Source of the DNA: Promethearchaeia archaeon
GTDB lineage: Archaea; Asgardarchaeota; Lokiarchaeia; Sigyniarchaeales; SOKP01
Direction of reading: 5' to 3'
Assembly (NCBI GenBank): GCA_029856145.1
Contig: JAHQWK010000032.1
Span: 1-64,000 of the forward strand
Length of the DNA stretch: 64,000 bases
In this document: one piece after another, positions 24,991 to 47,670 of the stretch
How the letters are laid out: each line of letters begins with the position of its first letter
How positions within the stretch are numbered: the stretch's first letter is position 1
Program-made: the position numbers and the translations under genes
The notes under the pieces: generated by a model
Database searches by the model: none
Told to the model about the DNA's origin: nothing
Seen by the model: the letters and a program-made list of their open reading frames with translations, nothing else

Positions 24991-25923
24991 GTGATAAAAT
25001 TGGAATCAAATAGTCCAGATCAAAAAGAAAATACTGAAAATAACATTATTAAAGAAGAAATTAAGTTACAGTTGCATATATGGCTACCTACATTCTATGT
25101 TATTTACTACTGTTCTTTTCTAATTCCGGGAATAATCTTCATGATGTATATGATGTTATTTTATTTGCCATTCTTCTTAGAGGAAGCAAACTTTATTTCT
25201 CTTTTTACTAATTTGCCTTCTCTCATTGCCTCTTTAACAATACCATTTGTAATAATAATATGTTACCTAATACATATATTTATTATAGCTCTAATAACTC
25301 GGTTGATTTGGAGATTCTCAGAAAAAAAATCTCCTTCTAAATCCGGAATCATCCCAAGAAATATCCCCAGTTTAACGTTAAATTATTATCACTTTCGTAG
25401 TTTTATTATAAAATATCCCAAAAACGTGTTTTCCCGAGGCCCATTTCCTTGGTTATTAAAATGGATGTATAATTTCGTCGGAACAAATAAAATAGGAAAA
25501 GGATCTGTCATTGAGGAGCAACTAGCTGGGGATAGGTTTGTAGAAATTGGAGAAAATACTTATATAGGAACAAATCCAGGTATCAGTTCACATGCAGTGG
25601 AAGGAACTTTTGGTAATATTTCATTTGCAAAGATAAAAATTAGAGATAATGTTACTGCTGCTGGATTTAATTGTTTTGGCCCGGGACTGGATACAGGAAA
25701 TAACTCATGGTGGTTACCTATGACTGGAGCAACGAAATACAACATTTTAAAAGGTAATAACTTCTATTTCGGCACTCCCCTCAGGAAGATTTTCAAAAGA
25801 AAGGTAATGGAGTACTTACAAATTTCAGAAGAGGATTTAAAAAGAGCAGAGGATTTTAAAAAAAAAATTGAATTAAAAAATCAAAAGAAAAAGAAGAAGA
25901 GGGAGATTCAAATAAATGAATGA
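24991..25923 (+). CDS. Membrane LbH module, type A2
   Basis: Close paralog of 16486..17400. Confidence 0.85.
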   Translation: MIKLESNSPDQKENTENNIIKEEIKLQLHIWLPTFYVIYYCSFLIPGIIFMMYMMLFYLPFFLEEANFISLFTNLPSLIASLTIPFVIIICYLIHIFIIALITRLIWRFSEKKSPSKSGIIPRNIPSLTLNYYHFRSFIIKYPKNVFSRGPFPWLLKWMYNFVGTNKIGKGSVIEEQLAGDRFVEIGENTYIGTNPGISSHAVEGTFGNISFAKIKIRDNVTAAGFNCFGPGLDTGNNSWWLPMTGATKYNILKGNNFYFGTPLRKIFKRKVMEYLQISEEDLKRAEDFKKKIELKNQKKKKKREIQINE

Positions 25924-26833
25924 AAATCTAGAAGAGAAAAAAAATGACGCAACTAAAGTCGATTATACTATTGATTTTGTAACAACTAGTGCGATTAGCA
26001 AAATTGGCTATAAATTTATTGGTTTTTATATCCCAATCTTATGGATTTCTGGATATATGGCGATTGCAGTATTTTTTGATGTCTCTAAGGGAATTTTTGA
26101 ACTAACTGGTCGATTTACCAGTGTGATAATCACCATGTTTCTTATACCAATATGGTTATTTGTTCTATATTTTATTTTTGTTTTTGGGATTGCTATGTTT
26201 ACAAAAGCATTCCTTCTAATAATAAACATGCTCCATAAGCCTAAAGAAGGAGTTTTCAGAGCAGAAGAAGGTGATCAAGATTATGAGTTTTGGAGACTAC
26301 GAGTAGAATTAAAGAAATTAGTTTTCTGGTTTATGAATAATGGGCCTTTGCCTTGGATTATAATGTGGGGTTTTAGATGGATGGATATTCATGTAGACTT
26401 TTCAAGTCATATGCAGGATGCATGGTCAGATGGTGGATTCATTGAATTCGGCCGAAATGTCACTGTAGGGCAAGGAGCAGTTGTAATGAGTTCAATGATT
26501 GTAGGAAAATATTTGATCATCAAAAAGGTTGTTCTAGGAGATCATACTGTCGTAGGTGGGCTATCACAGATCTCTCCGGGTACAATAATGGGTAAAGAAT
26601 CTGTGCTTGGTGCTTTTTCTACAACAATTCCCAGTCAATTTTTAGAACCAGGATGGATTTACTTAGGCCCTCAATTTGCAAGAAAACTAAAACCAAATAA
26701 ATATGCAGAGCAACGTAGAGATGTTATTATTGAGAAACATGTGGATGATGAAATAAAATATGAAGTTAAACAAGAAATTAATATAGATGAAGCTAAGAAA
26801 AAGCTCGTAAATAATAATAAGGAGGAAGAATGA
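25916..26833 (+). CDS. Membrane LbH module, type B2
   Basis: Close paralog of 17412..18302. Confidence 0.85.
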   Translation: MNENLEEKKNDATKVDYTIDFVTTSAISKIGYKFIGFYIPILWISGYMAIAVFFDVSKGIFELTGRFTSVIITMFLIPIWLFVLYFIFVFGIAMFTKAFLLIINMLHKPKEGVFRAEEGDQDYEFWRLRVELKKLVFWFMNNGPLPWIIMWGFRWMDIHVDFSSHMQDAWSDGGFIEFGRNVTVGQGAVVMSSMIVGKYLIIKKVVLGDHTVVGGLSQISPGTIMGKESVLGAFSTTIPSQFLEPGWIYLGPQFARKLKPNKYAEQRRDVIIEKHVDDEIKYEVKQEINIDEAKKKLVNNNKEEE

Positions 26834-26836
26834 ACC

Positions 26837-27688
26837 ATGTCAGTGCCTTCAAGTTTAAAAGTTGGGCCAAATACAAGTCTTATCTTAGCAAAAAAGAGAT
26901 ATCTAATATTCTATATTTTTTTAATCTGGATTAGTATTTTTTCAATTCAATTTGAATTTTGGTTATTTTGGAAACTTTATATTATTGAGAAATACATTCA
27001 TTTTTATTTCTTCTTGCCTCTTTTCATTTTTATAATGTACCTTACGTCAATAATAGTATCGCTAATTTTTGCAAAAATTCTTCTTCTAATCGTTAATCTT
27101 GTTCATAAGCCACGTGAGGGTGTTTTCATTAGGCACCGATCTGATAAGGATTATAGATATTGGAGTTTGAGAAATACTATTAAGAAATGGCCAATTTGGA
27201 TATCTCACAAATTCCCGTTCCCATTTATGAACAATATATGCTTCAAAATGTTTGGAGTAAAAACTAAATATTCTAATTCTTTATTTGAAGGGTGGGTTGA
27301 TACAGAATTTATTGATATCGGTAAAAATGTGGTAGTTGGACAGGGCGCTGTTGTCCAATCAGCCATTATAGTTGGCAATTTATTTATTATTAAAAAAACT
27401 ATTATTGAGGATAATGTCGTAATTGGATCTCAAAGTGTTCTTATGCCCGGAACGCATATGAAAAATAATTCTATTTTAGGAGGTCATTCTATGACTACAG
27501 TAGGGCAAGAATTAGAAGAATATTGGATATATTTAGGTGCACCTGCAAAAAAGTTTAAAAAAAATGTATTCTTTGAAGAAGGTTTAGAAGAGATTATTAA
27601 ACAGCAAGCAGAAAAAAAAATAGAATCACGAAAAAGATTTGAAGATTTATATACAATGCGCAAAGACAAGGAAGCTAAAATTGATTAA
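26837..27688 (+). CDS. Membrane LbH module, type C2
   Basis: Close paralog of 18302..19156; starts MSVPSSLKVGP. Confidence 0.85.
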   Translation: MSVPSSLKVGPNTSLILAKKRYLIFYIFLIWISIFSIQFEFWLFWKLYIIEKYIHFYFFLPLFIFIMYLTSIIVSLIFAKILLLIVNLVHKPREGVFIRHRSDKDYRYWSLRNTIKKWPIWISHKFPFPFMNNICFKMFGVKTKYSNSLFEGWVDTEFIDIGKNVVVGQGAVVQSAIIVGNLFIIKKTIIEDNVVIGSQSVLMPGTHMKNNSILGGHSMTTVGQELEEYWIYLGAPAKKFKKNVFFEEGLEEIIKQQAEKKIESRKRFEDLYTMRKDKEAKID

Positions 27689-28753: not shown

Positions 28754-30511
28754 ATGGTAAACTCCGAAACACCTTTAATTGAACACGATTCAGAAAAAAA
28801 AGTTATTAGAGAAGATATTAAATTCCAATATTTTTGGTATCTTGTTGTCTTATTTACGATTTACTTAATTTCATATTTAATTCCTGCTATTTTATTCATG
28901 ATTTACTTTCTATTTTATTTTATCCCTTCCTTTTTAGAAACTACAAATTTCCTATCAATTTTTATTAATTTAAAACCTCTTTTGGCATTAATATCCATGC
29001 CTTTGGTTATTATCGTATGTTATCTAATCCGCTTATTTCTGATTGCATTAGTTGCGCGCTTTTTTTGGAGATTGTCAGAAAAAAAATCCCCTTCTAAACC
29101 AGGCACTATACCAAGAAATTTCCCAAGTAAAACGCTAAATTTTTATCACATAAGATCTTTCATAATAAAATATCCCAAAACCGCTTTCACTAAAGGAATT
29201 TTTCCGTGGTTGTTACCATGGCTATATAATTTTGTAACCACGAGCCAGATTCAGAAAGGGACGACAATGGAAGAATCTTGTGTGAATGATAAATTTTTAG
29301 AAATTGGGAAAAATTGCTACATCGGTGTTAATTCAGTATTTACTAGTCATTTAATTGATGGTATATTTGGAAATATTGCTTATTTTAAAATTAAAGTAGG
29401 TGATAATGTTACCGCTGCGGCAAAAAACCTAATTGGTCCCGGTTCTGAAATTAAAGATAATTCCTACTTACTCCCTTTAGCTTCCACACCAAAACATAGC
29501 ATATTAAAAGGCAATAGCTATTATTTTTCAGCAGGAGCAAAACCCCTCCAGAGAATATCTAAAAGAAAAATTAAGAGCTATTTGAAAATTGACCCTGAAA
29601 CATTAGAACAAATAAAAGACGTTAAAGATGCAATTGGTTCTTCACCAGTTCAAACACAAGAAACGAATGAGGAGAGAGAAAAAGATTTATCGATCAATTT
29701 CGTCACAAGCAGCGCAATAAGTAGAGTTAATCTAAAATTTTTAATTTTGTATATCCCTATCTTTTGGCTTTCTGGGATGTTAGACGCTATAATCTTTTAT
29801 ACATATACTTATTATGTTCAAAACGGGATTTTAATGGTCTTTTTTTTACCAGCGATAATGTTTTTTATGTGGTTTGTATTTATTTTCAGCTGTTTAATTT
29901 TTAGTAAACTGTTTCTAATCTTAATAAACTTGACTCATAAGCCAAAAGAGGGAATCTTTAAAGCTGAAAAGGGCGATAATGATTTTGAATTTTGGTGCTT
30001 ACGGATCGAATTAAAGAAAATTGTGTTATGGCTTGTACGAAATTGGCCTCTTCCTTGGATGGACATATTAGTTTTCAAATGGTTTGGAATAAAAATAAAT
30101 TTTTCATGTGGCTTGTGGGATTCATGGTGTGATGCAGAGTTCATTCATTTCGGACGTAAAGTTTTAATAGGGCAAGGAGCAACGGTCATGTCTTCTATGG
30201 TTATTGGTAAATATTTAATTATCAAAAAAGTGATATTTGATGATTATTCTCTTATCGGTGGTCATTCTATTATCTCTCCAGGAACAATAGTAGGAAAAGA
30301 GACATTAGTTGGTGCTTTATCATATTCTTTATATAATCAAGTATTAGAGCCCGGATGGGTATATTTTGGAATGCCCATACAAAAATTGAAGAAGAACAAA
30401 TATGCCGAGGAACGACGGAACAAAATAATGAAAAGAGATGTTGATGAAGAAAAGAAATTTGAAATTGATCATGACATCAATATTGAAGAAGATAAGAAAG
30501 AGCTTGCTTAA
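28754..30511 (+). CDS. Fused A+B membrane LbH protein (AB3)
   Basis: N-half aligns with type A; C-half, from INFVTSSAISR, aligns with type B. Confidence 0.85.
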   Translation: MVNSETPLIEHDSEKKVIREDIKFQYFWYLVVLFTIYLISYLIPAILFMIYFLFYFIPSFLETTNFLSIFINLKPLLALISMPLVIIVCYLIRLFLIALVARFFWRLSEKKSPSKPGTIPRNFPSKTLNFYHIRSFIIKYPKTAFTKGIFPWLLPWLYNFVTTSQIQKGTTMEESCVNDKFLEIGKNCYIGVNSVFTSHLIDGIFGNIAYFKIKVGDNVTAAAKNLIGPGSEIKDNSYLLPLASTPKHSILKGNSYYFSAGAKPLQRISKRKIKSYLKIDPETLEQIKDVKDAIGSSPVQTQETNEEREKDLSINFVTSSAISRVNLKFLILYIPIFWLSGMLDAIIFYTYTYYVQNGILMVFFLPAIMFFMWFVFIFSCLIFSKLFLILINLTHKPKEGIFKAEKGDNDFEFWCLRIELKKIVLWLVRNWPLPWMDILVFKWFGIKINFSCGLWDSWCDAEFIHFGRKVLIGQGATVMSSMVIGKYLIIKKVIFDDYSLIGGHSIISPGTIVGKETLVGALSYSLYNQVLEPGWVYFGMPIQKLKKNKYAEERRNKIMKRDVDEEKKFEIDHDINIEEDKKELA

Positions 30512-30622
30512 CTTAAATTTCTGAAAAATTCGAATTAGAAAACATATATTTTTAAAACATTGTGTTTTTTAGAAAAAATATCTTAATTACTAAATATAAA
30601 TCAAAATTGAAAATTTAATGCT

Positions 30623-32452
30623 ATGACAAAAACGGAGCAACAATCAACTGAAAATGTTTCAGAGGATCAAGTTCCCCAAGAAGAAATTAAATTTCCATAT
30701 TTTTCGTTTTTACTTATATTTTTTATTATTTATTTGGCTTCATTGATTGTACCAGCACTAATATTTTTAGTTTATATATTCCTCTATTTTTTACCTCAAT
30801 TTTTAGAAATTACAAATTTTTTTGCTCTTTTTACAGAAATTAAGTCCCTAATTGCATTAATAACTATGCCTCTTGTTCTCATTTGTTGTTATCTTCTCCG
30901 GTTATTTTTCATAGGTCTAATTACACGTGGATTTTGGAGATCTAGTGAAAAAAAATTACCTAGTAAAAATGGGATAATACCAAGAAATGTTCCAAGTAAG
31001 GCATTGAATTATTATCAGAAGAGAAGCTTTATGATCAAATATGGAAAAAATTCCTTTATAAAAGGGGCCTTTCCTTGGCTTAGTAATTGGTTTTTCAACT
31101 TTGTGGGGTCAAATCAAATTGGAAAAGGTACAACCTTTGAGGAAAGTTCTGGTAATGACAAATTCGCAATTGTAGGTAAAAATTGTTATTTTGGTGTTAA
31201 CTCAATGTTAGCTAGCCATTTGGTAGATGGAACTTTTGGAAATATTAATTACTTTCAAATAAAAGTAGGAGATAATGTTACAACCGCCGGAACAAACCTG
31301 ATTGCACCGGGATCAGAAGTACATGATAATTCTTATTTATTACCTATAGCTTCGACCCCAAAACATAGTGTATTAAAAGGAAATAATTTTTATTGGGGGT
31401 TACCACTCAGGAAAATATTCAGAAAGAAGATAATGAAATATTTAGGGGTAACTCCAAAAGATTTAGAGATGAATGATAATGTTGAAGGTTACGCTGATAA
31501 AAAATTATTGGAAAAATTGAAAGCAGAGAAAGAATTGAGACAATCTGAGATTATCCCCAAAGAGGAACAAATAAAAGTAAATTTAGGAGAGGATGAAATT
31601 GACATAAATAATTTAACAGAAAAAAAATTAGCAATTGATTTCACGACAAGTAGCGCGATTTCAAGAGTTAATATAAAATTCCTAATCTTATATATCCCTA
31701 TTTTTTGGCTTTCTGGGATGTTAGACTCTATAATTTTTTATACATATACTTATTATGTTCAAAACGGGATTTTAATGGCTTTTTTTCTGCCAACTTTGGT
31801 AATCATTATGTGGTTTGTATTTATATTAGGTTGTTTCTTTTTCAGCAAGTTATTTTTAGTTTTAATAAATTTGATTCACAAACCTAAAGAAGGTATTTTT
31901 AAAGCAGAAATTGGTGACACTGATTTTGAGTTTTGGTGTTTACGGACAGAAGTGAAAAAAATTGTGATATGGCTTATACGAAATTGGCCTCTTCCTTGGA
32001 TGGACATACTAGCTTTTAAATGGTTTGGAATAAGAATGAGCTTATCTAGCTCTTTATATGATTCTTGGTGCGATGGTGAATTTATATCATTTGGGCGAAG
32101 GGTATTAGTTGGTCAAGGAGCCACTATCATGTCTTCGATGGTTGTTGGTAAATACTTGATTATAAAGAATGTTATATGTGGTGATTATTCTCTTATCGGT
32201 GGACACACCACTATAGCGCCAGGGACTGTTATAGGCGAAGATACTTTTGTGAGTGCAATTTCAAATACAATATATAACCAGATTCTTGAGCCCGGGTGGC
32301 TCTATCTTGGAATACCCGTGAAAAAACTCAAGGAAAATAAATACAGGAAAGAGAGAAGAGATATAATCATGAAAAGAGACGTAGACGAAGAAGAAAAATT
32401 CGAGATTGAACATGAAATTAACATTGAAGACGACAAAAAAGATCTTACCTAG
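30623..32452 (+). CDS. Fused A+B membrane LbH protein (AB4)
   Basis: Same two-module architecture as AB3. Confidence 0.85.
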   Translation: MTKTEQQSTENVSEDQVPQEEIKFPYFSFLLIFFIIYLASLIVPALIFLVYIFLYFLPQFLEITNFFALFTEIKSLIALITMPLVLICCYLLRLFFIGLITRGFWRSSEKKLPSKNGIIPRNVPSKALNYYQKRSFMIKYGKNSFIKGAFPWLSNWFFNFVGSNQIGKGTTFEESSGNDKFAIVGKNCYFGVNSMLASHLVDGTFGNINYFQIKVGDNVTTAGTNLIAPGSEVHDNSYLLPIASTPKHSVLKGNNFYWGLPLRKIFRKKIMKYLGVTPKDLEMNDNVEGYADKKLLEKLKAEKELRQSEIIPKEEQIKVNLGEDEIDINNLTEKKLAIDFTTSSAISRVNIKFLILYIPIFWLSGMLDSIIFYTYTYYVQNGILMAFFLPTLVIIMWFVFILGCFFFSKLFLVLINLIHKPKEGIFKAEIGDTDFEFWCLRTEVKKIVIWLIRNWPLPWMDILAFKWFGIRMSLSSSLYDSWCDGEFISFGRRVLVGQGATIMSSMVVGKYLIIKNVICGDYSLIGGHTTIAPGTVIGEDTFVSAISNTIYNQILEPGWLYLGIPVKKLKENKYRKERRDIIMKRDVDEEEKFEIEHEINIEDDKKDLT

Positions 32453-32464
32453 GACATCTCAACT

Positions 32465-32878
32465 TTAATCAATTTTCAAGGTAAATTGCTGTTCTAAAAA
32501 CCTTTTCAAATTCGAACATGTAATTTTTAGACTTTGTTTTGTATTATAAAATTGCTCCTTTCTAGGGCAATCATCATCAAGTAAGCATTTTTTTTTGTTA
32601 ATATCATAGATTAATGGATAAAATCGGCATCCTTGAGGTCGAAATTCATAAATTTTACATTTCTTTGCAGAGTAGTTTAAAAAAACGCAATGACCATCAA
32701 TATTTTTTAGTTGAAATTGCTCATTTTTATTTTTAAAAGCAATATCTTGTTTCTTTATTTTATTCGGATAACTTTTTACTATTAAGTCAATGTCTTGTTG
32801 AGAAAGTATCATTTCTGTTTCTAAACAACACTCTCCGCAATTTTCACATATGTTTTTCAATTTCTGCCTACGAATCAT
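32465..32878 (-). CDS. YkgJ-family cysteine-cluster protein
   Basis: CENCGECC...CVFL...CKIYEFRPQGCRFYP. Confidence 0.9.
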   Translation of the reverse strand: MIRRQKLKNICENCGECCLETEMILSQQDIDLIVKSYPNKIKKQDIAFKNKNEQFQLKNIDGHCVFLNYSAKKCKIYEFRPQGCRFYPLIYDINKKKCLLDDDCPRKEQFYNTKQSLKITCSNLKRFLEQQFTLKID

Positions 32879-32974
32879 AAATTTAAAAGGAAAAAAAAAT
32901 AACTATTAAAGTAAATAAGTATCAATTGCTTTTTAATAGAAATAAATAAGTTGATCTAGGATTGACTAGTCAAA

Positions 32975-34834
32975 ATGAGTGAAGAATCTGAAGAAAGTGA
33001 TCTTCCAAATAATAATGAAGTTATAAAAGAAGAGGTCAGTCTTCAGTACCATTTATATATCTTTATTTTTGCATTAATATTTTATGGTTCATGGGTAATT
33101 CCCGGGATTTGCTTTTTTTGGTATTTGCTTCAAGTATTCCTACCATATGTATTAGATGTTACTAATTTTTTCCTTATCTTTATTCAATTGGAGTCATTAA
33201 TCGCATTTCTCTCAATGCCGTTAGTTCTTATTGGATGTTATTTGTTGCGTTTATTCTTTTTAGGACTATCTACTAAGATTTTTTGGAAGATATCTGAAAA
33301 AACCTCTCCATCAAAAGCGGGAGTGATTCCACGAAATATTCGTAGTAGAGCGGCAAATTACTATCATTTAAGAGGTTTTATGATTAAATACGGAAAAAAT
33401 ACCTTTACAAAGGGAGTTTTTACTTGGCTCAGTAATTGGTTTTTTAATTTTATAGGAGCATCCAAAATAGGGAAAGGTACGACGTTGGAGGAATCTGTAG
33501 TTAATGATAAATTTATTGAAATTGGGAAGAACTGTTATTTGGGGGTAAATTCTGCTTTAGGGACTCATGTAGTGGAGGGAATCTTTGGTAATATCTCATA
33601 CTTCAAAGTTAAAGTTGGCGATAACGTTACCGGGGCAACAACAAATTTAATTGGGCCTGGATCAGAAATACGCGATAATTCATTTCTGCTTCCTTTAGCT
33701 TGCGCGACAAAACATAGTATAGCAGGAAAACCTCCCTTAATTAATTACTATTGGGGCATGCCATTAAGACGAATATTCAGAAGAAAGATAATGCAATATT
33801 TGGGTGTATCAGCAAAAGACTTAGAGAAAAATGAAAATATTCAAGGTTATGCTGATAAAAAATTACTGAAAAAATTAAAAGCCGAAGAAATCATTGATAA
33901 CACTCACAATAAGCAACATGTAGTTAGTAAATTACCTGAGGATAAAATAAACGTAAATGCTTTAACAGCAAAAGATTTAGAAGTGGATTTTACTACGAGT
34001 TCTGCGATCAGTAGAGTAAATATAAAGGTTTTAGCTGTTTATATACCAATATTTTGGCTAGCAGGACTAGTAGTTTCGATCTTTTGGTACTGGTATCTTT
34101 CTGATGAGAATTGGGCTATGATTTTAACCTTTCTCCCCCTTGCTTTATTTGGTTCAATTTATTTTTTTATTTTTGCTTGTATGCTCTTTAGTAAATTATT
34201 CTTAATTTTTGTAAATTTAATTCATAAACCCAAGGAGGGTGTCTTTAAAGCCGAGATTGGTGATAAGGATTTTGAATTCTGGATGTTTAGAACTGAATTA
34301 AAGAAAATGATTTTATGGTTTATGCGATATTCACCATTTCCATGGTTAGATGTACTAGCTTTTAAATTAATTGGGGTTGATATGGATACATCTAGCCATC
34401 TTAATGATACTTGGTGTGATGGTGAATTCATTAAATTTGGCAGAAAGAATTTAATCGGTCAAGGAGCCAATATTATGTCGAGTACAGTAATAGGTAAGTA
34501 TTTGATCATTAAAAAAGTAATATTTGATGACTATGTAATGGTTGGAGCTCATACAACTATAGGGCCTGGAACAATAATAGGTAAAGAGACAATCGTTGGT
34601 GCGATTTCCACCACCACATTTAATCAAGTTCTTGAGCCTGGGTGGATTTACACAGGAATTCCTGTCACAAAATTCAAACCAAACAAATATGCTGCATCTC
34701 GTAGAGAAATCCTTGTAAAAAAAGATGTAGATGAAGCAAGAAAATATGAAGTCACACATGAAGTAAACATAGATGAGGATAAGAAAGAATTAATTAAAAC
34801 AGAAAATAATAATAATGTTCATGATTCTTCTTGA
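32975..34834 (+). CDS. Fused A+B membrane LbH protein (AB5)
   Basis: Same two-module architecture as AB3. Confidence 0.85.
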   Translation: MSEESEESDLPNNNEVIKEEVSLQYHLYIFIFALIFYGSWVIPGICFFWYLLQVFLPYVLDVTNFFLIFIQLESLIAFLSMPLVLIGCYLLRLFFLGLSTKIFWKISEKTSPSKAGVIPRNIRSRAANYYHLRGFMIKYGKNTFTKGVFTWLSNWFFNFIGASKIGKGTTLEESVVNDKFIEIGKNCYLGVNSALGTHVVEGIFGNISYFKVKVGDNVTGATTNLIGPGSEIRDNSFLLPLACATKHSIAGKPPLINYYWGMPLRRIFRRKIMQYLGVSAKDLEKNENIQGYADKKLLKKLKAEEIIDNTHNKQHVVSKLPEDKINVNALTAKDLEVDFTTSSAISRVNIKVLAVYIPIFWLAGLVVSIFWYWYLSDENWAMILTFLPLALFGSIYFFIFACMLFSKLFLIFVNLIHKPKEGVFKAEIGDKDFEFWMFRTELKKMILWFMRYSPFPWLDVLAFKLIGVDMDTSSHLNDTWCDGEFIKFGRKNLIGQGANIMSSTVIGKYLIIKKVIFDDYVMVGAHTTIGPGTIIGKETIVGAISTTTFNQVLEPGWIYTGIPVTKFKPNKYAASRREILVKKDVDEARKYEVTHEVNIDEDKKELIKTENNNNVHDSS

Positions 34835-34916
34835 TAATATAATTAAAAATTTGAAAATTTTATAGAACAATTTAAAAAAGAGAAGGAGAAATGTAAAAAA
34901 ATAAGAGTGATAAAAG

Positions 34917-35897
34917 ATGTCGGTTCCAAATACAATGCGTGTAGAGTAAGATGCGATTCGAATCTTGCACACTAGGCCTTTCACGCCCTCGGTTTTGGCA
35001 AAAAAAAGATATTTAATTTTTTATATATTTCTGATATGGGCAAGTATAATCCCTTTACTCCTAGAATTGTGGGTGTATTGGCGGTGGTTATGGAATTATG
35101 ATAGGCCTGTCCATTTTTATACATTCCTTCCTCTTTTAGGTGTACTGATGTATGTAACAATTGTCTTTTCAGGAATAATATTTGCTAAAATACTTTTGAT
35201 TTTTGTTAATGCAATTCACAAGCCTCGAGAAGGTGTATTTTTGAGAATTCCAGAAGATCGAGATTATCGATATTGGAGCCTAAGAAATACTATAAAGCGT
35301 TGGCCGGTTTGGCTTGCTCACAGATTTCCATTTCCAGGAATTATGGATAATGTTTGTTTTAAAATGTTTGGAGTAAAAACTAAAATAAGTAATTCCTTAT
35401 TTGAAGGATGGGTAGATACAGAATTCATAGATTTTGGTAAAGATGTAGTAGTTGGGCAAGGAGCAATTGTTCAATCTGCTGTTATTATTGGTAATTTGTT
35501 AATAATCCGAAAAACAATAATAGAAGATAATGTAAGGATAGGTTCACATGCTATAGTTATGCCTGGTACTCATATAGGGCAAAATTGCATTCTCGCAGCA
35601 AATTCAGTAACAACAGTTGGACAAGAGTTAGAAAGAGGTTGGATTTATGTAGGGATTCCAGCAAAACAATTCAAAAAGAACTATTTCTTTGAAGATGGAT
35701 TGGAAGATAAGATTGGCCATGTTGAAGACGTTGAAAGTTTGAGAGAAAAATACGAAGATATCTATATTAGACGAAAAGATGAGCTTAAACGTAAAGATCG
35801 TAGAGAAATTAAGAAAGAAAAGAAAGAAGAAGAAAAGAAGAGATTTGATTATGAGGCCGAGGAATGGGAAGATATTGATGACGGTTTCAGTATATAA
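34917..35897 (+). CDS. Membrane LbH module, type C3, intron-containing: join(34917..34944,34975..35897), 316 aa
   Basis: ATG at 34917 with RBS GAGTGAT (34905..34911). The spliced N-terminus MSVPNTMRVGPFTPSVLAKKRY aligns without gaps to MSVPSSLKVGPNTSLILAKKRY of C2. Confidence 0.88.
34945..34974 (+). other. 30-nt archaeal bulge-helix-bulge (BHB) intron in an mRNA
   Basis: Central helix GUGU/ACAC, 3-nt bulges AGA and UAG, intron stem GUAAGAU/AUCUUGC; contains in-frame TAA (34947..34949). Confidence 0.88.
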
Positions 35898-37152: not shown

Positions 37153-39054
37153 ATGCCGCCAATAAATTATCCTCCTCAAGAGATTATTGACCATCCAATA
37201 GAGGAAAAGAAAAAGTATGATCATACTATTCTCTGGATGTTATGCAATAACGAAGAATGTGAATGGTCCGATTTTCTTCGGAGACCGCTTGAAATACCTA
37301 CATCTTCTTTATCTCGTCACCTTAATATGTTAAAAACTGAAGGATATCTAACAAAAATATCAAAAGGCCATTATAAAATCACAATAGAAGGAAGAAGACG
37401 ATTTCACGACCTATCTAAAGCGGCTATAAAGAAAAGAAAGTTAAGTTATCCTCCTGAAACGATATTAAAAAGTGGAAGGAATTACGGGCATTGGATTTTA
37501 TGGATGGTATATAACAATACTTATTGTAAGTGGTCTGATTTTCTCGAAGAACCTCTTTCTATTAATCAATCATCATTATCAAAAGCAATGAATTTGATGA
37601 TGAAAAATGGATTTGTCAGAAAAGATTCTGAATCTAAAGAATATAGAATAACTCAACTGGGTAAAATTGAGTATTCAAGGATACTTCATTATTATGATTT
37701 AGATAGACAAACAATTTTAGATGAAGAAAGCAAGCGAATAGAAGATATTACAAAAAAAACAGTGGAATTTTTTGATACTTATAATATTAATGATGCACGT
37801 ACTCAATTTAGATTTCTTAACAATATTTTGAAATTAGATTACAATAGAGTTGAATCTATGCTAAAAAACGAGGAGAATTTTCATAAGATTTTATTTTTCC
37901 TTTCGATAAATCATCCTAATCAATATCCAAATCATATTTCTCCTGAAGAATTTTCTAAAGAATATGGAATTAAAGAGAATACGCTTACTTATTATATTGA
38001 TGAAATTGTGGAAAATAACATATATCCAATAAGATTTTTTGAATTAAAAGCACCATCAGATAAACACTATTATTTTCAGGAGAATGAAAAACTAGAAACA
38101 ATGATAAGAGCAATTATAGAGGATCATATAACAGAATATACCTATTTAAACAAATTATTTGGCAGATCGATGAATTTTAATGTTATTATCGATGAAATTT
38201 CAGATGAAGTGTGTGAATTTTTGCTTGATAGAGATTTAAAGAAAGTCTTAAAAGAGTTTTTACCAGAATATATTAATTATTTAGCATATAAAATCAAAGA
38301 TGAAAGAAAATTAATAGAATTATACGATAAATTAGAGGGGATCATATGGCAGAACGTCTCGAACATCGTTAAAATAAAAAGTTCAGAAAATACTGAAAAT
38401 CAATATGAACAACAACTTGAAGAAATTAATAAAAAAATTGAATTAAATCCTAAAAAAATTGATTTGTATTATTCAAAAATTCAAATCATGATTTACTACG
38501 GTCAATTTGATGATATTTTTAGGTTATTAGAGGATATGATTGAGATTTTTCCCGAAAATGAAAAAGACATTAAAATGAAAAAAGCATCTATACTTAAGAG
38601 AAATGATGAAGTTGAAGCAGGATTTGAGATTATAAATGAATTATTACAGAAAAATCCTAAGGATGTTGAATTACTTGTTTACAAGGCTTATTGGATGCAA
38701 TATTTGAACAAAAAGGAAGAATCATTAAATATTATTCGTAGTCTTATACAACAAAATCCAGATAAAAGTACTTACCATGATACTTATGGAGAAATTTTAA
38801 TGTATTTTGAAGAATATCAAAAAGCAGTGAACCAATTTCAAAAAGCAATAGATCTAGCTAGTGATGAATGGTATATTAATCAAACTCATATAAAATTGGG
38901 AATATCTTATAAAGAGCTGGGAAATAATGAGTTGGCCGTCAAATTCCTTAGAATAGGGAAAGAATTGACAAATTCTACTTCAGATGAAGATAATATTAAA
39001 CAGAAATGGTTTAATATAGCTGATATTTTCCTTGCAGAGATGGAAGAGTTATAA
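37153..39054 (+). CDS. Tandem winged-HTH + TPR protein, putative regulator
   Basis: Repeated unit YPP..I...Y.H.ILWM..NN..C.WSDF...PL.I..SSLS (twice), a third HTH-like segment, and C-terminal TPRs. Confidence 0.8.
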   Translation: MPPINYPPQEIIDHPIEEKKKYDHTILWMLCNNEECEWSDFLRRPLEIPTSSLSRHLNMLKTEGYLTKISKGHYKITIEGRRRFHDLSKAAIKKRKLSYPPETILKSGRNYGHWILWMVYNNTYCKWSDFLEEPLSINQSSLSKAMNLMMKNGFVRKDSESKEYRITQLGKIEYSRILHYYDLDRQTILDEESKRIEDITKKTVEFFDTYNINDARTQFRFLNNILKLDYNRVESMLKNEENFHKILFFLSINHPNQYPNHISPEEFSKEYGIKENTLTYYIDEIVENNIYPIRFFELKAPSDKHYYFQENEKLETMIRAIIEDHITEYTYLNKLFGRSMNFNVIIDEISDEVCEFLLDRDLKKVLKEFLPEYINYLAYKIKDERKLIELYDKLEGIIWQNVSNIVKIKSSENTENQYEQQLEEINKKIELNPKKIDLYYSKIQIMIYYGQFDDIFRLLEDMIEIFPENEKDIKMKKASILKRNDEVEAGFEIINELLQKNPKDVELLVYKAYWMQYLNKKEESLNIIRSLIQQNPDKSTYHDTYGEILMYFEEYQKAVNQFQKAIDLASDEWYINQTHIKLGISYKELGNNELAVKFLRIGKELTNSTSDEDNIKQKWFNIADIFLAEMEEL

Positions 39055-39378: not shown

Positions 39379-40254
39379 ATGATATCTAAGGTACTAGTAA
39401 TATTATCTAACGGAATTCTGTGCTATTCAAAAACAATTTTTGGTCATAACAATATTGATGATGATTTTGTAAGTGGCTTTCTGACAGCAATCCTCGATAT
39501 TTCTCATAAGATTGGTGGAGGAGAAATAAGATCTTTAAACTTCAGAAATTTTAATATTATTTATTCTTATGATGACGAAAAATATTGTATATTTATACTA
39601 CTCGCTGACATCAAAGATCCAGAAGAAGAGATAAGAGAAAAATTAGAATTACTGAAAAATGAATTTATAACCCGATATCGTAATGATTTAATAAATTGGG
39701 ATTCTGATATTGCAAAATTTGAAGGGTTTGATGAATTTGTAGGAAAAAATATTTATATTCCTCCTAAAATATTATTGGTTGGTGAAGATGGAGTTGGCAA
39801 GACTACAATAATGAATTTATTTCCAGGAGAGCTAATAATTGAATTAGATGAGGACATGAATGAAATTATCCAAAAAACTATCAATTTATCTAATTCTAAA
39901 AAATTAAAAAAGTGTATATTACGAGAAATTAACTTAGAAGACTTAGTAAACAATTCGAAAATATATCGGCAACTTTTAGATTCTGTAGATATTATTTGTC
40001 TAGTTACTAATTCTGGAGCAACTAATTTAAACAGTACAAAGAGATTATTCTCATTATTACAACCGAAAGTAGAAAGAGCACAATTCTATGTTATTGCTAA
40101 CTTTCAAGATATGAAAAATACTTCTTTTGAACTTGAAAAAATTGAAGAATTTTTTGGAGAAAAAACATTTGGTTTTTCAGCAATAATAAAAGAGGCTAAA
40201 GAAAATATTTACTCAATAATTACTGAAATGTTAAATACCACAAGTACAGAATAA
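39379..40254 (+). CDS. Longin domain - small GTPase fusion with degenerate G3/G4
   Basis: Longin signature (NGILCYSK, DDDFVSGFLTAI, IRSL); G1 GEDGVGKT; no DxxG; G4 NFQD; G5 FSA. Confidence 0.8.
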   Translation: MISKVLVILSNGILCYSKTIFGHNNIDDDFVSGFLTAILDISHKIGGGEIRSLNFRNFNIIYSYDDEKYCIFILLADIKDPEEEIREKLELLKNEFITRYRNDLINWDSDIAKFEGFDEFVGKNIYIPPKILLVGEDGVGKTTIMNLFPGELIIELDEDMNEIIQKTINLSNSKKLKKCILREINLEDLVNNSKIYRQLLDSVDIICLVTNSGATNLNSTKRLFSLLQPKVERAQFYVIANFQDMKNTSFELEKIEEFFGEKTFGFSAIIKEAKENIYSIITEMLNTTSTE

Positions 40255-40279
40255 GATTTAAACAGATAAAAAGAAAAAA

Positions 40280-40774
40280 ATGAAAATTCAAGAAGATTTT
40301 GTTTTCCCTGTATATATTTATGAAAAGACGATTGAGGAAATTAAATTATTGTGCAAAAGTTCAGAATTAGAAATTTTTGGATATCTTATAGGCACCACCT
40401 CAAAATGGAATGGAAGAATTTATACTTTAATAGAGGAATCACTATTTCTGCTTGGAGCGATATATAGTCATAAATCCTATACCTCTCAAATAGAAGGAAC
40501 TGCCGGATTATATCAGAAAAAATTTCAGAGAATTAAGAAAAAAAGAAAAAATGAGAATTTAAAAATTATCGGGTGGTGGCATTCACATCCGAATTTAGGA
40601 TGTTTTTTATCTTCTACAGACTTGTTGACTCAGAAGTATTTCTTTTCTAAAGAATATCAAGTTGCTCTTGTTATTGATCCATTTCGAAATGAATTTGAAT
40701 TTTTTTCTTTAGATAACAACTCAAAAAAAGGTTACAAATCATTAAGTTATGCTGTTTTAAAAAAAACTAGTTAA
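40280..40774 (+). CDS. JAB/MPN+ metalloprotease (deubiquitinase, Rpn11/CSN5-like)
   Basis: E..G.LIG, GWWHSHPNLGCFLSSTD, ALVIDP. Confidence 0.92.
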   Translation: MKIQEDFVFPVYIYEKTIEEIKLLCKSSELEIFGYLIGTTSKWNGRIYTLIEESLFLLGAIYSHKSYTSQIEGTAGLYQKKFQRIKKKRKNENLKIIGWWHSHPNLGCFLSSTDLLTQKYFFSKEYQVALVIDPFRNEFEFFSLDNNSKKGYKSLSYAVLKKTS

Positions 40775-40782
40775 GTCTAAAC

Positions 40783-41670
40783 ATGTCAAGAAAAAAAGAA
40801 GATTTTAAAGATTATACTGTATATGGGATTGATTCTATAGATTCAGATATATTTGATCGCCAAAAACGTATAAAAGGATGGGATCAAAGCAAGATTTCTA
40901 ACGCAACAGTTATGGTTATTGGTGCGGGAGCTATAGGGAATGAAGTTATTAAAAATCTAGTGTTAACAGGTATAGGTAATATCATTTTAATTGATTACGA
41001 TTTTATAAATACCTCAAACTTAAATCGATGCATTCTATTTAATGTAGAAAATGCTCAGCAGAAAGAATATAAAGTGGATGCTATAAAAGATGCATGTAAA
41101 AAACTCAATCCAAATGTAGAGATTATAACAGTTAAAAATGATTTAAATGACATTGATAAAGCATTTTATGAAAAATCTGATGTTATTTGTTCATGTGTAG
41201 ATAATATTGAAGCAAGACTAGAAGCAAATAACTATGCATTTTATTATGAAATACCATTTGTAGATTCAGGAATTGACGAACTCTTTGGTAGTGTTCAATC
41301 AGTTTATTCTGAAATAAAAGATGCCGCTTGTCTTCAGTGTAATGTTTCTGACATGGATTTAGATTTGATGTGGAAAAAATTTTCATGTACAGGGCAAGAA
41401 GTTGAGAGTAAAAACGGTGAAACTATGGGAATAATACCAGCCATTATTACGACCACTTCTATTATCGGGGGATTACAATCACAACAAGTATTGAAATTTA
41501 TATTAGGAATTGATTATTTTAAAGAACACAATAAATGGAATCCTCATATTGGCCCGCCTTTGATTGGAAAACAATTGAATTATAATGGTCTATTAAATAA
41601 ATTTGAAGTTATTGAGAAATTAAAAAATCCAGAATGTTGGACATGTTCATTTAAAAAAATAATTTATTAA
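40783..41670 (+). CDS. Ubiquitin-activating enzyme E1-like (ThiF/UBA)
   Basis: FDRQ, GAGAIGNE, DYDFINTSNLNR, CLQC, putative catalytic FSCT, CWTC. Confidence 0.92.
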   Translation: MSRKKEDFKDYTVYGIDSIDSDIFDRQKRIKGWDQSKISNATVMVIGAGAIGNEVIKNLVLTGIGNIILIDYDFINTSNLNRCILFNVENAQQKEYKVDAIKDACKKLNPNVEIITVKNDLNDIDKAFYEKSDVICSCVDNIEARLEANNYAFYYEIPFVDSGIDELFGSVQSVYSEIKDAACLQCNVSDMDLDLMWKKFSCTGQEVESKNGETMGIIPAIITTTSIIGGLQSQQVLKFILGIDYFKEHNKWNPHIGPPLIGKQLNYNGLLNKFEVIEKLKNPECWTCSFKKIIY

Positions 41671-41696
41671 AAAAGAAAAATAATGGGTGAAGCTGT

Positions 41697-42260
41697 TTGC
41701 CAGAACTTCCTTATGAAATATGGAAAGATAGAATTGATAATGAACTTAGTAATATGAAAAAGTTAGGTAATCTTGAAGAAAATTCAATAAATATGAATAG
41801 TAATAATATTGAATTAATTTTAAATATAACAGCGTTAGGGTTTGTCAGGGAAAAAGCAGACTTAGTACCAAAAAATTCTCATCGTATATATCTTAAAATA
41901 AATCGATCCTTTCCCTACCCTGGTGGTATAGATTTTTCTTGGCTATCAAAAATATTTCATCCTAATATTCATCCTATTGAATTATCATTTTCAAATGAAC
42001 CAGGAACAGGATATATATGTCTAAATATTTTAAAAAAATGGTCACGATTATCCGATTTAGTGACTACTGTTAGAGCTTTAAAAATATTAGTCGAAAATCC
42101 CAATCCTCATGACCCTCTTGATTATCCTGAATGTCTAGATGCTGCTAAATTTTATAAGAAAAATAATATCACGGAACTTAAGAAAAAGTATTCTTCTGAG
42201 GAGGGTTATAAGGATTCTGAGAGAAAAGAAGATGATGATATTAAAATCATAGAAGAATAA
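41697..42260 (+). CDS. Ubiquitin-conjugating enzyme E2-like
   Basis: FPY, IFHPNI, GYICLNILKKWS (catalytic Cys), NPNPHDPL. Confidence 0.92.
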   Translation: MPELPYEIWKDRIDNELSNMKKLGNLEENSINMNSNNIELILNITALGFVREKADLVPKNSHRIYLKINRSFPYPGGIDFSWLSKIFHPNIHPIELSFSNEPGTGYICLNILKKWSRLSDLVTTVRALKILVENPNPHDPLDYPECLDAAKFYKKNNITELKKKYSSEEGYKDSERKEDDDIKIIEE

Positions 42261-42269
42261 ATAAAATCG

Positions 42270-42536
42270 CTATTCTTTTAAAAAACCACCTATAACTCTC
42301 GTCCATAAAATTAACTTCTGGTCCTCTTTTAATCCATATTTATGGATAATATCCTCTATTGTAATTTTATTTGGTAATTCTTGATTATTAAGAACTAAAG
42401 TATAAGAACGCTGTTCAGTACTAATAATACCCATATGTTTTACAATTATATCAATAATTCTTTCAATTTGATGATGGTTTTTAACATCCAATTTAATAAT
42501 TCTTCCTGTTCTTGAATCTTCGACTGAAATTCTCAA
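42270..42536 (-). CDS. Ubiquitin-like protein precursor
   Basis: Beta-grasp pattern (MRISVED..GRIIKLDV...LVLNNQEL...T...YGLKEDQKLIL) ending RVIGG-FLKE. Confidence 0.88.
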   Translation of the reverse strand: MRISVEDSRTGRIIKLDVKNHHQIERIIDIIVKHMGIISTEQRSYTLVLNNQELPNKITIEDIIHKYGLKEDQKLILWTRVIGGFLKE

Positions 42537-42642: not shown

Positions 42643-42891
42643 CTAATCATTAGAATTAGTTTTTTTTCGAAAAATCAAATATCTAATAAACCCAATGAAA
42701 AATGGAGTTATCCAAACGATTAAAACCCAAACAGCAGCGTTTATTCTTTTCTTTTTAGCGTCCTTATATACCCAAATTGCAATAAAAATTAATACTATAT
42801 AAGGAATTAATAAAAAAATTAAGAGGAGTAGTGCAATCAAGAAATTTAAATCGCTATATATTGAATAAATATTAAACAACGTGTATATCAT
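42643..42891 (-). CDS. Small membrane protein with PLDc_N-like domain
   Basis: IWVYKDAKK...WVLIV...IG...YL. The likely start is ATG at 42891 after GGAGGAG, overlapping the upstream gene; the track start at 42957 is probably too far upstream. Confidence 0.7.
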   Translation of the reverse strand: MIYTLFNIYSIYSDLNFLIALLLLIFLLIPYIVLIFIAIWVYKDAKKKRINAAVWVLIVWITPFFIGFIRYLIFRKKTNSND

Positions 42892-45193: not shown

Positions 45194-46912
45194 CTATTCA
45201 AAATAAACGCCTTTCATTACAAATTTATCTGGATTAGAAATCGTTTCAATTCCTCTTACATTTGGACCGAAAACATCAAAATATATACCCACATCCACCC
45301 ATACTACAGGATATAATTCCTCTATAAGGTGCTGTTGGATGTTATAGTATAAATTTTCTCTTTTAGTTTTATTTACTTCTATTACTGCAGCTTCTATCCA
45401 TTGTTGCACTTGCGTATCATTTACTTGACCTATATTGTACGAAGGTTCTTTAGTATTAAATAATCGAAGTGTATTGTGAGGATCGAGATCTGGTGCATGC
45501 CAACCTACAAAAAGAAGTTCTATTTTGTGTCTGTGTAGCTCTGGATGGAAAATAATATTATCATATTCTACTCCTGAAACATGAGCAGCTTCTAATTTTA
45601 CTCCAATTTGTTTAAGACTCTCAGATGTAATATTAAATATTGTTTCATAGTACTCCCAACCAGCTATATACGTGAAATTATAGGTTGCAAGGGGTTTTTC
45701 ATCTATTACTAACTGTTCCCATTCATTTCCAGAACTGATATCACTATTAGCTGTCAAGTTAGTGGTGCCATTCCATCCAACATCTTTTAAAACCTGTCTA
45801 GCAGTTTGAATATTATAATTAGGTACATTAAAAGCGCCCCATTTAGAATACAGCATACGTGGCATAATGGGTGAAAGGCATCTTGTACTCAATTCACCTA
45901 GAAATATAGAATAATTAAATGCATGAGAGATTGCTTTTCTCATCGTCACATTAATTATTTCATTGTTCATAATAAGGTCCCAAAATGTAAGTGATGTAGC
46001 ATTTACTAATTGGAGTCCAGGTGTGTTTTGAAATGTTTCAAGTTCCCCATAAGGAGCCCAAGTTCCATCAATCTCTCCAGATACCATTGCTTCGACCCTG
46101 AGAGTACTATTGGAAAAATATCTTAAAATAATTTTTTCAATTTTTGCTTTTTCAGCCCAATAATTCGGATTTGAACGCAAAGTTACGCTAGTTATAAATT
46201 TACCAATCACATCAACAGTAAATTTACAGGAATCGTAAATAAAAGGACCTGTCCCGACTAGAATGCCAGTTGTTATATCAATGTAATCATCTTCAGGAGT
46301 GGAGTTCGGCGAAAACATGTACGCCATACGAGAACTCAGTAATGATAGAAAGGGAACATAAGGATCATTTAACACAAATCTTATAGTATATTCGTTTATA
46401 ATTATAGTTTTATTAATAATTGTTCGACCATCTGAAAGTTGCCATAAAAAACCATAAGTTGTATTCAAAGGTAACCTAGAAATTCTATCTATGTTCCATT
46501 TAACTGCTGTAGCGTCAAATGGTGTTCCATCGTGGAATATAACATTCTCTCTTAGTGTGCAGGTGACGTTTAAACCATCAAGACTCCAATTAAAATTTGT
46601 TGCTAACTTCGGAATAATTACAGTTTCTCCATGTGTAACATTATAATCAAATAATCCTTCAGCAACATGATCAATAATTAAAAAGGCTTCTTCGTTAGCA
46701 GTTGTAAGTGGATCTACTGTGTAAAAGCCATTTCCCAATCCGTAGATAAAAATATCCTCCTCTGGAAGAAGATTAAAGATATATATACCCCCAAATATAC
46801 CAGCTAAAGCAACTACAGCAATTAAACCTCCAATAGCTAATGGTTTTTTTTCAGTAAAAACTTTTTTTATTTTTGAGCCTTTTTTCTTAGGTTTTTTATT
46901 CTCTAAATTCAT
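45194..46912 (-). CDS. ABC transporter substrate-binding protein, family 5 (DppA/OppA-like)
   Basis: EGLF, P.LA..W, LRENVIFHDGTPFDA.AVKW, VGTGPF, RKAISHA. Confidence 0.92.
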   Translation of the reverse strand: MNLENKKPKKKGSKIKKVFTEKKPLAIGGLIAVVALAGIFGGIYIFNLLPEEDIFIYGLGNGFYTVDPLTTANEEAFLIIDHVAEGLFDYNVTHGETVIIPKLATNFNWSLDGLNVTCTLRENVIFHDGTPFDATAVKWNIDRISRLPLNTTYGFLWQLSDGRTIINKTIIINEYTIRFVLNDPYVPFLSLLSSRMAYMFSPNSTPEDDYIDITTGILVGTGPFIYDSCKFTVDVIGKFITSVTLRSNPNYWAEKAKIEKIILRYFSNSTLRVEAMVSGEIDGTWAPYGELETFQNTPGLQLVNATSLTFWDLIMNNEIINVTMRKAISHAFNYSIFLGELSTRCLSPIMPRMLYSKWGAFNVPNYNIQTARQVLKDVGWNGTTNLTANSDISSGNEWEQLVIDEKPLATYNFTYIAGWEYYETIFNITSESLKQIGVKLEAAHVSGVEYDNIIFHPELHRHKIELLFVGWHAPDLDPHNTLRLFNTKEPSYNIGQVNDTQVQQWIEAAVIEVNKTKRENLYYNIQQHLIEELYPVVWVDVGIYFDVFGPNVRGIETISNPDKFVMKGVYFE

Positions 46913-47088: not shown

Positions 47089-47670
47089 TTAAATTGCTTG
47101 AGATTTATAATATAATTTCTCAATAATAGCATCGAAAGCTTCATGAACTCCCTGGCCAGTCTTGGCTGAGGTTATATAATATCCAAGAAAGTAGTGTTCA
47201 TTAACGATTTCTCGAATTTCAGAGTGGTCCAGATTATCCATATCAATTAAATCAATCTTATTAGCAAAAAGCATAATAGGGATATTTCCACAAAATCGTT
47301 TAATATCTTCATGCCAATTTTGAATATGCTTAAAACTATTTCTTCCTAGAGTGTTCTCTTCAAGGCTATACACAATTATAGCAGCGTCACTTTGTCTATA
47401 GAATGAGGGACGTAGAAAATCGAGATCTCGTTGTCCTGCAATATCCCAAAATAATAACCGAACATGATCTTCATCGATTTCTTTATCGAATTTTGAAAAT
47501 TGGGCACCAATAGTCTCAACATAATCAGTCTCAAAAGTGCCCCGTGTGAATTTTTTGATTAGGGATGTTTTCCCTACTCGTCCATCTCCAATTACCGTAA
47601 TTTTAAATCTTAACTTTTTTCCAGAATTGCTCATAGAATAAAAAATATTGTAGAAGATCGTACTTAACAT
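47089..47670 (-). CDS. Rab-like small GTPase
   Basis: GDGRVGKT, ETIG, WDIAGQ, NKID, TSAK. The likely start is ATG at 47634; no C-terminal prenylation Cys. Confidence 0.93.
   Translation of the reverse strand: MLSTIFYNIFYSMSNSGKKLRFKITVIGDGRVGKTSLIKKFTRGTFETDYVETIGAQFSKFDKEIDEDHVRLLFWDIAGQRDLDFLRPSFYRQSDAAIIVYSLEENTLGRNSFKHIQNWHEDIKRFCGNIPIMLFANKIDLIDMDNLDHSEIREIVNEHYFLGYYITSAKTGQGVHEAFDAIIEKLYYKSQAI

Follow-up and report, generated by a model that had tools for sequence, protein, structure and literature searches.

Several ubiquitin-like conjugation systems have been described in prokaryotes. In Caldiarchaeum subterraneum the system comprises ubiquitin, E1, E2, the small RING-H2 protein srfp and Rpn11, and both pro-ubiquitin maturation and deconjugation have been shown for this Rpn11 (PMC5654768). 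Prokaryotic RING E3s have been described in Ubl-E1-E2-RING-JAB operons, where Ubl is the ubiquitin-like modifier (Kaur 2020, PMC7159879), and Cluster III is defined by an E1 without the C-terminal ubiquitin-like domain (Hennell James 2017 supplement, PMC5654768). The archaeal ubiquitin systems known so far possess a single small, soluble RING; the expansion of E3s and their fusion to other domains are regarded as a step taken in eukaryotes (PMC5654768, Supplementary Note 6). In Asgard archaea, Ubl, E1, E2 and JAB genes cluster in loci coupled to ESCRT (Hatano 2022, PMC9192718), and longin-fused small GTPases occur (Liu et al., bioRxiv 10.1101/2020.10.19.343400), which include ArfL and other groups (10.1101/2024.02.28.582541). 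Taken singly, Asgard Ubl/E1/E2/JAB clusters, the processing of pro-ubiquitin and longin-fused GTPases have all been described before. We analyzed a stretch of 64,000 nucleotides (the window; positions 1 to 64,000 of contig JAHQWK010000032.1, assembly GCA_029856145.1, forward strand) from a Promethearchaeia archaeon, which carries a Ubl conjugation cassette. In about 70 Loki-type Asgard archaea, this Ubl pathway is accompanied by a G protein devoid of switch motifs and by a membrane protein family with RING-like zinc fingers. The cassette points to an undescribed use of Ubl tagging in membrane signaling, not in membrane trafficking. A literature search, with many subscription papers outside its coverage, returned no paper on the locus, nor one in which such a system is joined to a degenerate GTPase, RING-like membrane proteins or enzyme-less satellites, and the novelty is unproven.

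The core of the cassette consists of five genes:
39379..40254, + strand: longin domain (residues 1-126) and Arf-like probable pseudo-GTPase domain (residues 127-291), 291 aa
40280..40774, + strand: Rpn11/CSN5-like JAMM protease (JAB), 164 aa, with E31, H101, H103 and D114 all conserved
40783..41670, + strand: E1 adenylation enzyme, 295 aa, with Cys202 and two zinc CxxC pairs, apparently without a C-terminal ubiquitin-fold domain (UFD)
41697..42260, + strand: UBC-fold E2, 187 aa, TTG start, with HPN at 88-90, an insertion, Cys108 and an acidic tail
42270..42536, − strand: pro-ubiquitin-like modifier (Ubl), 88 aa, TTG start, with GG83-84 followed by the tail FLKE, convergent with E2

The four genes of the + strand are separated by 25, 8 and 26 nt, and the stop codons of E2 and Ubl are 9 nt apart. 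A first-pass annotation, made by a model from the sequence alone, had described four close-set genes with a convergent Ubl, and we found all five open reading frames (ORFs) with these coordinates, strands and gaps. The cascade of JAB, E1 and E2 that it proposed is also supported: the catalytic motifs are intact, and the modifier has a ubiquitin fold and ends in GG-FLKE. The Pfam matches of JAB (E 1e-10), E1 (ThiF, 2e-48) and E2 (UQ_con, 2e-9) are all over the cut-off. Conservation over 61-66 orthologs extends to the JAMM residues, to the nucleotide motif, the two CxxC pairs and Cys202 of E1, and to the HPN and Cys108 of E2. H88, P89, N90 and C108 are invariant in 46 E2 sequences, and the insertion precedes the catalytic Cys. 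The best PDB matches of JAB are archaeal and yeast Rpn11 (6fjv is the best, E 4e-10). The Ubl gave no Pfam match; its model aligns with ubiquitin at a TM-score of 0.72/0.82 and about 28% identity, and ubiquitin is found throughout the top 50 PDB matches. The enzymes of the cassette are single-copy and conserved (E2 about 55-80% and E1 about 70-85% identical), and by their motifs they look functional. A sulfur-carrier role of the ThiS/MoaD type was rejected in view of the UBC E2, the Rpn11-like JAB, the ubiquitin-like fold, and the separate ThiS-like GG proteins encoded elsewhere in the genome.

The GG is invariant in the Ubl orthologs (61/61), and the tail that follows it is unconserved and 0-11 aa long. 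The invariant GG and the variable tail support the proposal that the Ubl needs JAB to expose the GG; 11 of the 61 orthologs already end at GG. A requirement of JAB for Ubl maturation fits the sequences of most genomes, and the 11 tail-less orthologs suggest that JAB has a job beyond maturation. By likeness to the Caldiarchaeum Rpn11, it is presumably also the deconjugase. The Ubl family also occurs as the N-terminal domain of larger proteins (L126:4911-6539, 542 aa; L127:2-1297, at least 431 aa). Two more E1-E2-Ubl clusters are present in the genome of the window (G000:C28:76187-79286 and C9:169-4696), the former with a JAB. The modifiers encoded there are extended by an acidic stretch at the N terminus, and their last residues are AG (STAG, SIAG), not GG.

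It turned out that 64 of 65 cassette E1s stop 3-17 residues past the last CxxC; three longer E1s of the same genome run 84-99 residues past it. Because of this early end, the cassette E1 is judged to lack the ubiquitin-like domain found at the C terminus of Cluster I/II E1s, and it is similar to the E1s of Cluster III and the bacterial systems. The same E1 length is found in a Ubl-E2-JAB...E1 cluster of Desulfurococcaceae (TACK archaea), where E1 is 39% identical. Unlike the Cluster III and bacterial operons, the cassette has a finger fused to a multi-pass membrane domain, in 1-20 copies, as well as a fixed pseudo-GTPase, a convergent Ubl and enzyme-less satellites. It shares with the Caldiarchaeum cascade a ubiquitin-fold pro-modifier with a tail after GG, an Rpn11-like JAMM protease and a UBC E2, but differs from it in the missing E1 C-terminal domain, the absence of srfp, the insertion before the catalytic Cys of E2, and the extra pseudo-GTPase and membrane genes. 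No small free-standing RING-H2 gene is present at the cassette, and the zf-RING_2 genes of this genome are on other contigs. The nearest outside E2s belong to Desulfurococcaceae, Thermofilaceae, Bathyarchaeia, Ubl-E2 fusions and further contigs. Some of these outside relatives (P0129, P0131, P0145, P0121) are Ubl-E2 fusions, and one is a tandem double E2 in which the catalytic Cys is apparently replaced.

The first gene of the core encodes a protein of two folds. Residues 1-126 match the longin domain of VAMP7 (Z 14.0, root-mean-square deviation 2.1 Å, 112 residues aligned), and the rest of the protein, residues 127-291, resembles Arf-like G domains (Z 17.3, 2.9 Å, 152 aligned). Thus, the longin-GTPase named by the first-pass annotation is real as to both folds, but its G domain is degenerate. 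In the window protein, the G1 motif GEDGVGKTT is intact, the G2 Thr is missing, G3 is replaced by EINLEDL, G4 is NFQD and G5 is SA. A set of 100 G domains from cassettes showed the same pattern. They retain the P-loop (G, G and K in 98-99 of them), and their switch I is acidic, with no Thr conserved in it. The Gly position of G3 is mostly E, D or N, its Gln position is Leu in 93, and G4 is NFQD, not NKxD, with F in 94 and K in one. Five other longin-GTPases of the same genome are intact, with PT in G2, DFAGQ in G3 and NKQD in G4; an intact paralog is encoded at C29:40576-41454. In a midpoint-rooted tree, with paralogs taken from this genome only, the cassette G domains all fall into a single, long-branched clade (100/100), which is placed with the intact longin-GTPases among the small GTPases of the genome. 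Since the G2 Thr and the G3 DxxG are missing and NFQD stands for NKxD, the cassette protein is probably a pseudo-GTPase, which may have kept guanine-nucleotide binding and lost hydrolysis. Compared with Asgard longin-fused GTPases, it has the same longin and Arf-like G domains, but the G2 Thr, the G3 DxxG-Q and the G4 Lys are lost, and it is tied to a Ubl pathway. An active GTPase switch is not supported, given the absence of the G2 Thr and the G3 Gly/Gln throughout the clade.

Upstream of JAB, we found four forms of this gene: longin and G domain (43), longin, G domain, TPR and carbon-nitrogen hydrolase (10), G domain and TPR without longin (4), and a split G domain (1). At some loci the G genes form tandem doublets or triplets. 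Because the forms vary in longin, TPR and hydrolase, the constant element is the G domain, and the longin is dispensable. A role for the longin as such is not supported, given the G-TPR forms that occupy the same slot. The fusions with the hydrolase (L064:5074-7722, − strand, and similar genes, about 12 loci) combine the longin-pseudo-GTPase with a TPR-like helical region. Their hydrolase passes the PF00795 cut-off, and the position upstream of JAB links an amidase to the Ubl pathway.

To describe the linkage, we used 65 distinct JAB genes lying away from contig edges. A G-domain ORF is located directly upstream of JAB on the same strand in 58 of them; it is broken or cut in four, and none is present in three. 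A GTPase gene unlinked in relatives had been named in advance as evidence against its coupling to the pathway; instead, this gene is the most constant neighbor of JAB. The arrangement recurs in about 60 related genomes. In a sister family, three genomes keep the order of G and JAB, followed in two by an intact E1, and E2 and Ubl are elsewhere. Chance adjacency of an abundant GTPase was rejected: the genome has 68 small-GTPase-like ORFs, and only one belongs to this clade. E2 orthologs were found in 73 of the 161 genomes of the class; E2 and the G clade are both present in 69, E2 alone in 4, G alone in 3 and neither in 85. Owing to the kinship of these genomes and the incompleteness of some, the counts overstate independence. 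All 11 same-genus genomes without E2 are also without G. In a sample of 400 genomes of the phylum, the Ubl family occurs in 77, all of one order, and it was not found in the 239 sampled genomes of other classes. Presence of the cassette is patchy within genera. Two E2-positive genomes, G074 and G118 (88% and 97% complete), are those in which neither the G nor the finger gene was found, and their Ubl is broken. Their decaying cassette copies (L094 and L142) have a Ubl that is frameshifted or interrupted by a stop codon.

Next to the Ubl gene, two membrane protein genes extend the cassette:
42643..42891, − strand: small protein with two transmembrane segments, about 82 aa, WVYKDAK motif, single copy in the genome
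42872..43903, − strand: multi-pass membrane protein (about seven transmembrane segments) with a C-terminal C4C4 RING-like finger, candidate E3

The first-pass annotation had missed this probable membrane E3 and the wider cassette. The finger, with the pattern C-x2-C-x10-C-x2-C-x4-C-x2-C-x10-C-W-x-C, is at the end of the protein (about residues 214-288 if numbering starts at the ATG at 43774), and this is the only full-length copy of the gene in the genome. The probable start is ATT at 43903, and the first ATG is at 43774. Gene callers may shorten this gene, as well as the Ubl and E2 genes with their TTG starts. In related loci, the small membrane protein gene is found again, with the finger gene on one side and G or Ubl on the other. 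Matches to the finger family number 1-20 per genome, and the 44 members that we aligned are all membrane fusions. The family is present in 71 of 73 E2-positive genomes vs 13 of 88 E2-negative ones. In the Desulfurococcaceae cluster, a free finger of 78 aa stands directly before E1; it matches the finger profile (E 4e-11) and is over the Prok-RING_1 cut-off. A similar free-standing finger is present at an E1/E2 locus of Desulfobacteraceae. Prediction of the E2-finger complex gave a score of 0.46 vs 0.00 for the best control, with contact agreement between runs of at least 94% and a partner pLDDT of at least 83. The mark used was reached by 58 of 80 solved and 2 of 110 mismatched pairs, and 0.46 lies in the range up to 0.60, where only seven solved pairs and both mismatches fall. 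This score may reflect likeness to solved RING-E2 complexes, and it gives the pairing weak support. A search of the ESM Atlas with the finger returned only matches below 0.9, several of them RING clusters, which serve only as leads; a homolog search with the TACK finger gave no candidates. On balance, we find it rather likely that the membrane finger protein is the E3 of the pathway.

The genomes also contain copies of the cassette without enzymes. In 15 loci, 17 extra Ubl copies directly face a G gene in convergent orientation, without enzyme genes in between, and 10 of the 17 end at GG. The usual order of these satellites is the membrane finger gene, the small membrane protein gene and a G-TPR gene, converging on Ubl and the winged-helix regulator. 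A genome has 1-5 G paralogs vs one E2. A shared core with many specificity modules would be expected to show just this pattern, a single enzyme set beside several paralogs of finger, G and Ubl. A DUF4097-like protein and a family 5 solute-binding protein are frequently encoded beside the satellites, and in the stretches read no permease gene adjoins the latter. The whole accessory set of the satellites is present in the window between 37153 and 46912:
37153..39054, + strand: accessory regulator with a double winged helix (wHTH) and TPR, 8 homologs in the genome
44062..45057, + strand: accessory membrane-anchored DUF4097/toast-rack-like protein, common in satellites
45194..46912, − strand: accessory family 5 solute-binding protein without an adjacent permease, possible ligand sensor

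The regulator occurs at 15 of 62 enzyme loci and in most satellites. In the subtype with G-TPR and a short winged-helix regulator, the palindrome TTCGAA-N13-TTCGAA lies about 50-130 nt before Ubl at nine loci (L067:7392, L097:7339, L098:424, L109:4453, L113:2293, L118:5864 and others). It is operator-like and is also found before other cassette genes of this subtype. The palindrome is absent from the window cassette, and a repeat scan of the window intergenic regions gave nothing convincing.

We propose, with about even chances, that the cassette is a lineage-specific Ubl conjugation pathway serving membrane-linked signaling. The motifs and the known chemistry support its first steps well: JAB would trim the tail after GG and later remove the tag, and E1 would adenylate the Ubl, hold it on Cys202 and pass it to Cys108 of E2. 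The C4C4 finger of the membrane protein may then bind the charged E2 as an E3, and the many finger paralogs may give one E1/E2/JAB set many membrane inputs. More tentatively, the G protein would bind guanine nucleotide, be unable to hydrolyze it or switch normally, and serve as a dedicated adaptor that joins the membrane E3 to JAB/E1 and targets, carrying swappable domains (longin, TPR, or TPR and carbon-nitrogen hydrolase). Speculatively, the solute-binding protein could provide an extracellular ligand as the stimulus, and the winged-helix regulator could control the pathway or respond to it as a transcriptional output. That the pseudo-GTPase is physically part of the pathway is likely; the sequences do not separate an adaptor from a substrate. 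As the main substrate, it would change state when the Ubl is attached and when JAB takes it off, not through GTP hydrolysis, and the satellites would supply cognate E3/substrate/modifier sets to the shared enzymes. The linkage of G to JAB is the tightest and is kept where E2 and Ubl are unlinked, the G paralogs outnumber E2, the switch motifs were lost with the P-loop retained, and in satellites G travels with its own Ubl paralog. The adaptor role fits the same pattern equally, however, and no acceptor lysine was identified on the G protein; we consider a main-substrate role unlikely. In the TACK cluster of Desulfurococcaceae no G gene was detected, and the chemistry can therefore probably do without the G protein. 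An obligatory stand-in for the missing UFD of E1 is also disfavored, since that cluster has the same short E1.

Besides this missing G gene and the overstated independence of the presence and absence counts, other observations weigh against membrane-linked signaling. The finger gene is within about 10 kb in only 39 of 62 enzyme loci, and it is present in the near-complete E2-less genomes G063, G111 and G116. The solute-binding gene (9/62 enzyme loci) and the DUF4097-like gene (12/62) are looser members, and the DUF4097-like family also occurs in E2-less genomes. The weak Pfam matches of the fingers are ambiguous (C1_2 in 38/44, zf-C3HC4_3 in 20/44, Prok-RING_1 in 13/44). C1_2 is the commonest of them, the C1 domain of PKC is the top weak PDB match, and some E2-negative genomes have the finger; it could thus bind a ligand or the Ubl as a C1/PHD-like module, with the membrane protein being a substrate or reader (receptor down-regulation or quality control) of an E3-independent pathway. 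This is quite improbable, given the weak support for the E2-finger complex and the outgroup homologs, which are free-standing Prok-RING_1 proteins beside E1. The patchy presence within genera, together with the related prokaryotic RING/E1/E2/JAB sets of conflict systems (PMC7159879), would suit an anti-virus system similar to the bacterial Ubl-E1-E2-RING-JAB modules, in which the membrane proteins would be the sensors and the G-TPR-hydrolase fusion the effector. But the enzymes are single-copy and conserved, the neighbors resemble sensory genes, and PADLOC gave only generic E1/JAB matches and none for E2, Ubl, G or finger, which leaves such a system little probability. The least probable is the version of the first-pass annotation, an active longin-GTPase that ties proto-trafficking (ESCRT- or coat-like sorting) to ubiquitination. 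In its favor are the real longin fold, the candidate membrane E3 and the coupling of ubiquitin to ESCRT in other Asgard loci (PMC9192718), whose clustering of Ubl, E1, E2 and JAB the cassette shares. Unlike those loci, the cassette has a separate Ubl family, which in the sample of 400 genomes was confined to one order, and no ESCRT genes nearby; the genome has other E1/E2 sets with long E1s. No Snf7/Vps4 homolog or other ESCRT gene was found in the loci examined, and the ESCRT genes of the genome are on other contigs. The degenerate GTPase motifs and the forms without longin also speak against the trafficking link.

Membrane-anchored RING ligases are known in eukaryotes (MARCH, Hrd1/Doa10 type), and the pseudo-GTPases RGK and AAGAB are G domains without switch motifs used as scaffolds. 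The cassette parts are similar to them by functional analogy only. Because the cassette is confined to one Loki order, this likeness is probably convergent, and we deal probably with a parallel invention, not with an ancestor of eukaryotic trafficking. It is a tentative thought that one Loki order independently evolved eukaryote-like signaling. Its membrane RING E3s, receptor-like and up to about 20 in number, could each pair with a cognate pseudo-GTPase, a paralog of the modifier and a regulator while sharing one E1/E2/JAB core, and a former longin-GTPase would be switched by reversible Ubl tagging in place of GTP hydrolysis. If it is true that a prokaryotic membrane RING-like family tracks one E2 together with a pseudo-GTPase and modifier paralogs, the step of E3 expansion took place inside an Asgard lineage. 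To our knowledge, the natural substrates of Asgard ubiquitin-like systems are largely unknown. The cassette yields a short list of soluble, expressible candidates (the G protein, the finger domain and the wHTH regulator), which makes the substrate question directly testable.

The flanks of the cassette contain further genes of note. An intact Rab-like GTPase is encoded close to it (47089-47670, − strand), and in many loci a homolog of this GTPase immediately precedes the long G-TPR-hydrolase fusion. Before the cassette, membrane-bound hexapeptide-repeat acyltransferase-like genes (609, 619 and 310 aa) lie in tandem at 28754-35897, with similar ones at 24991-27688.

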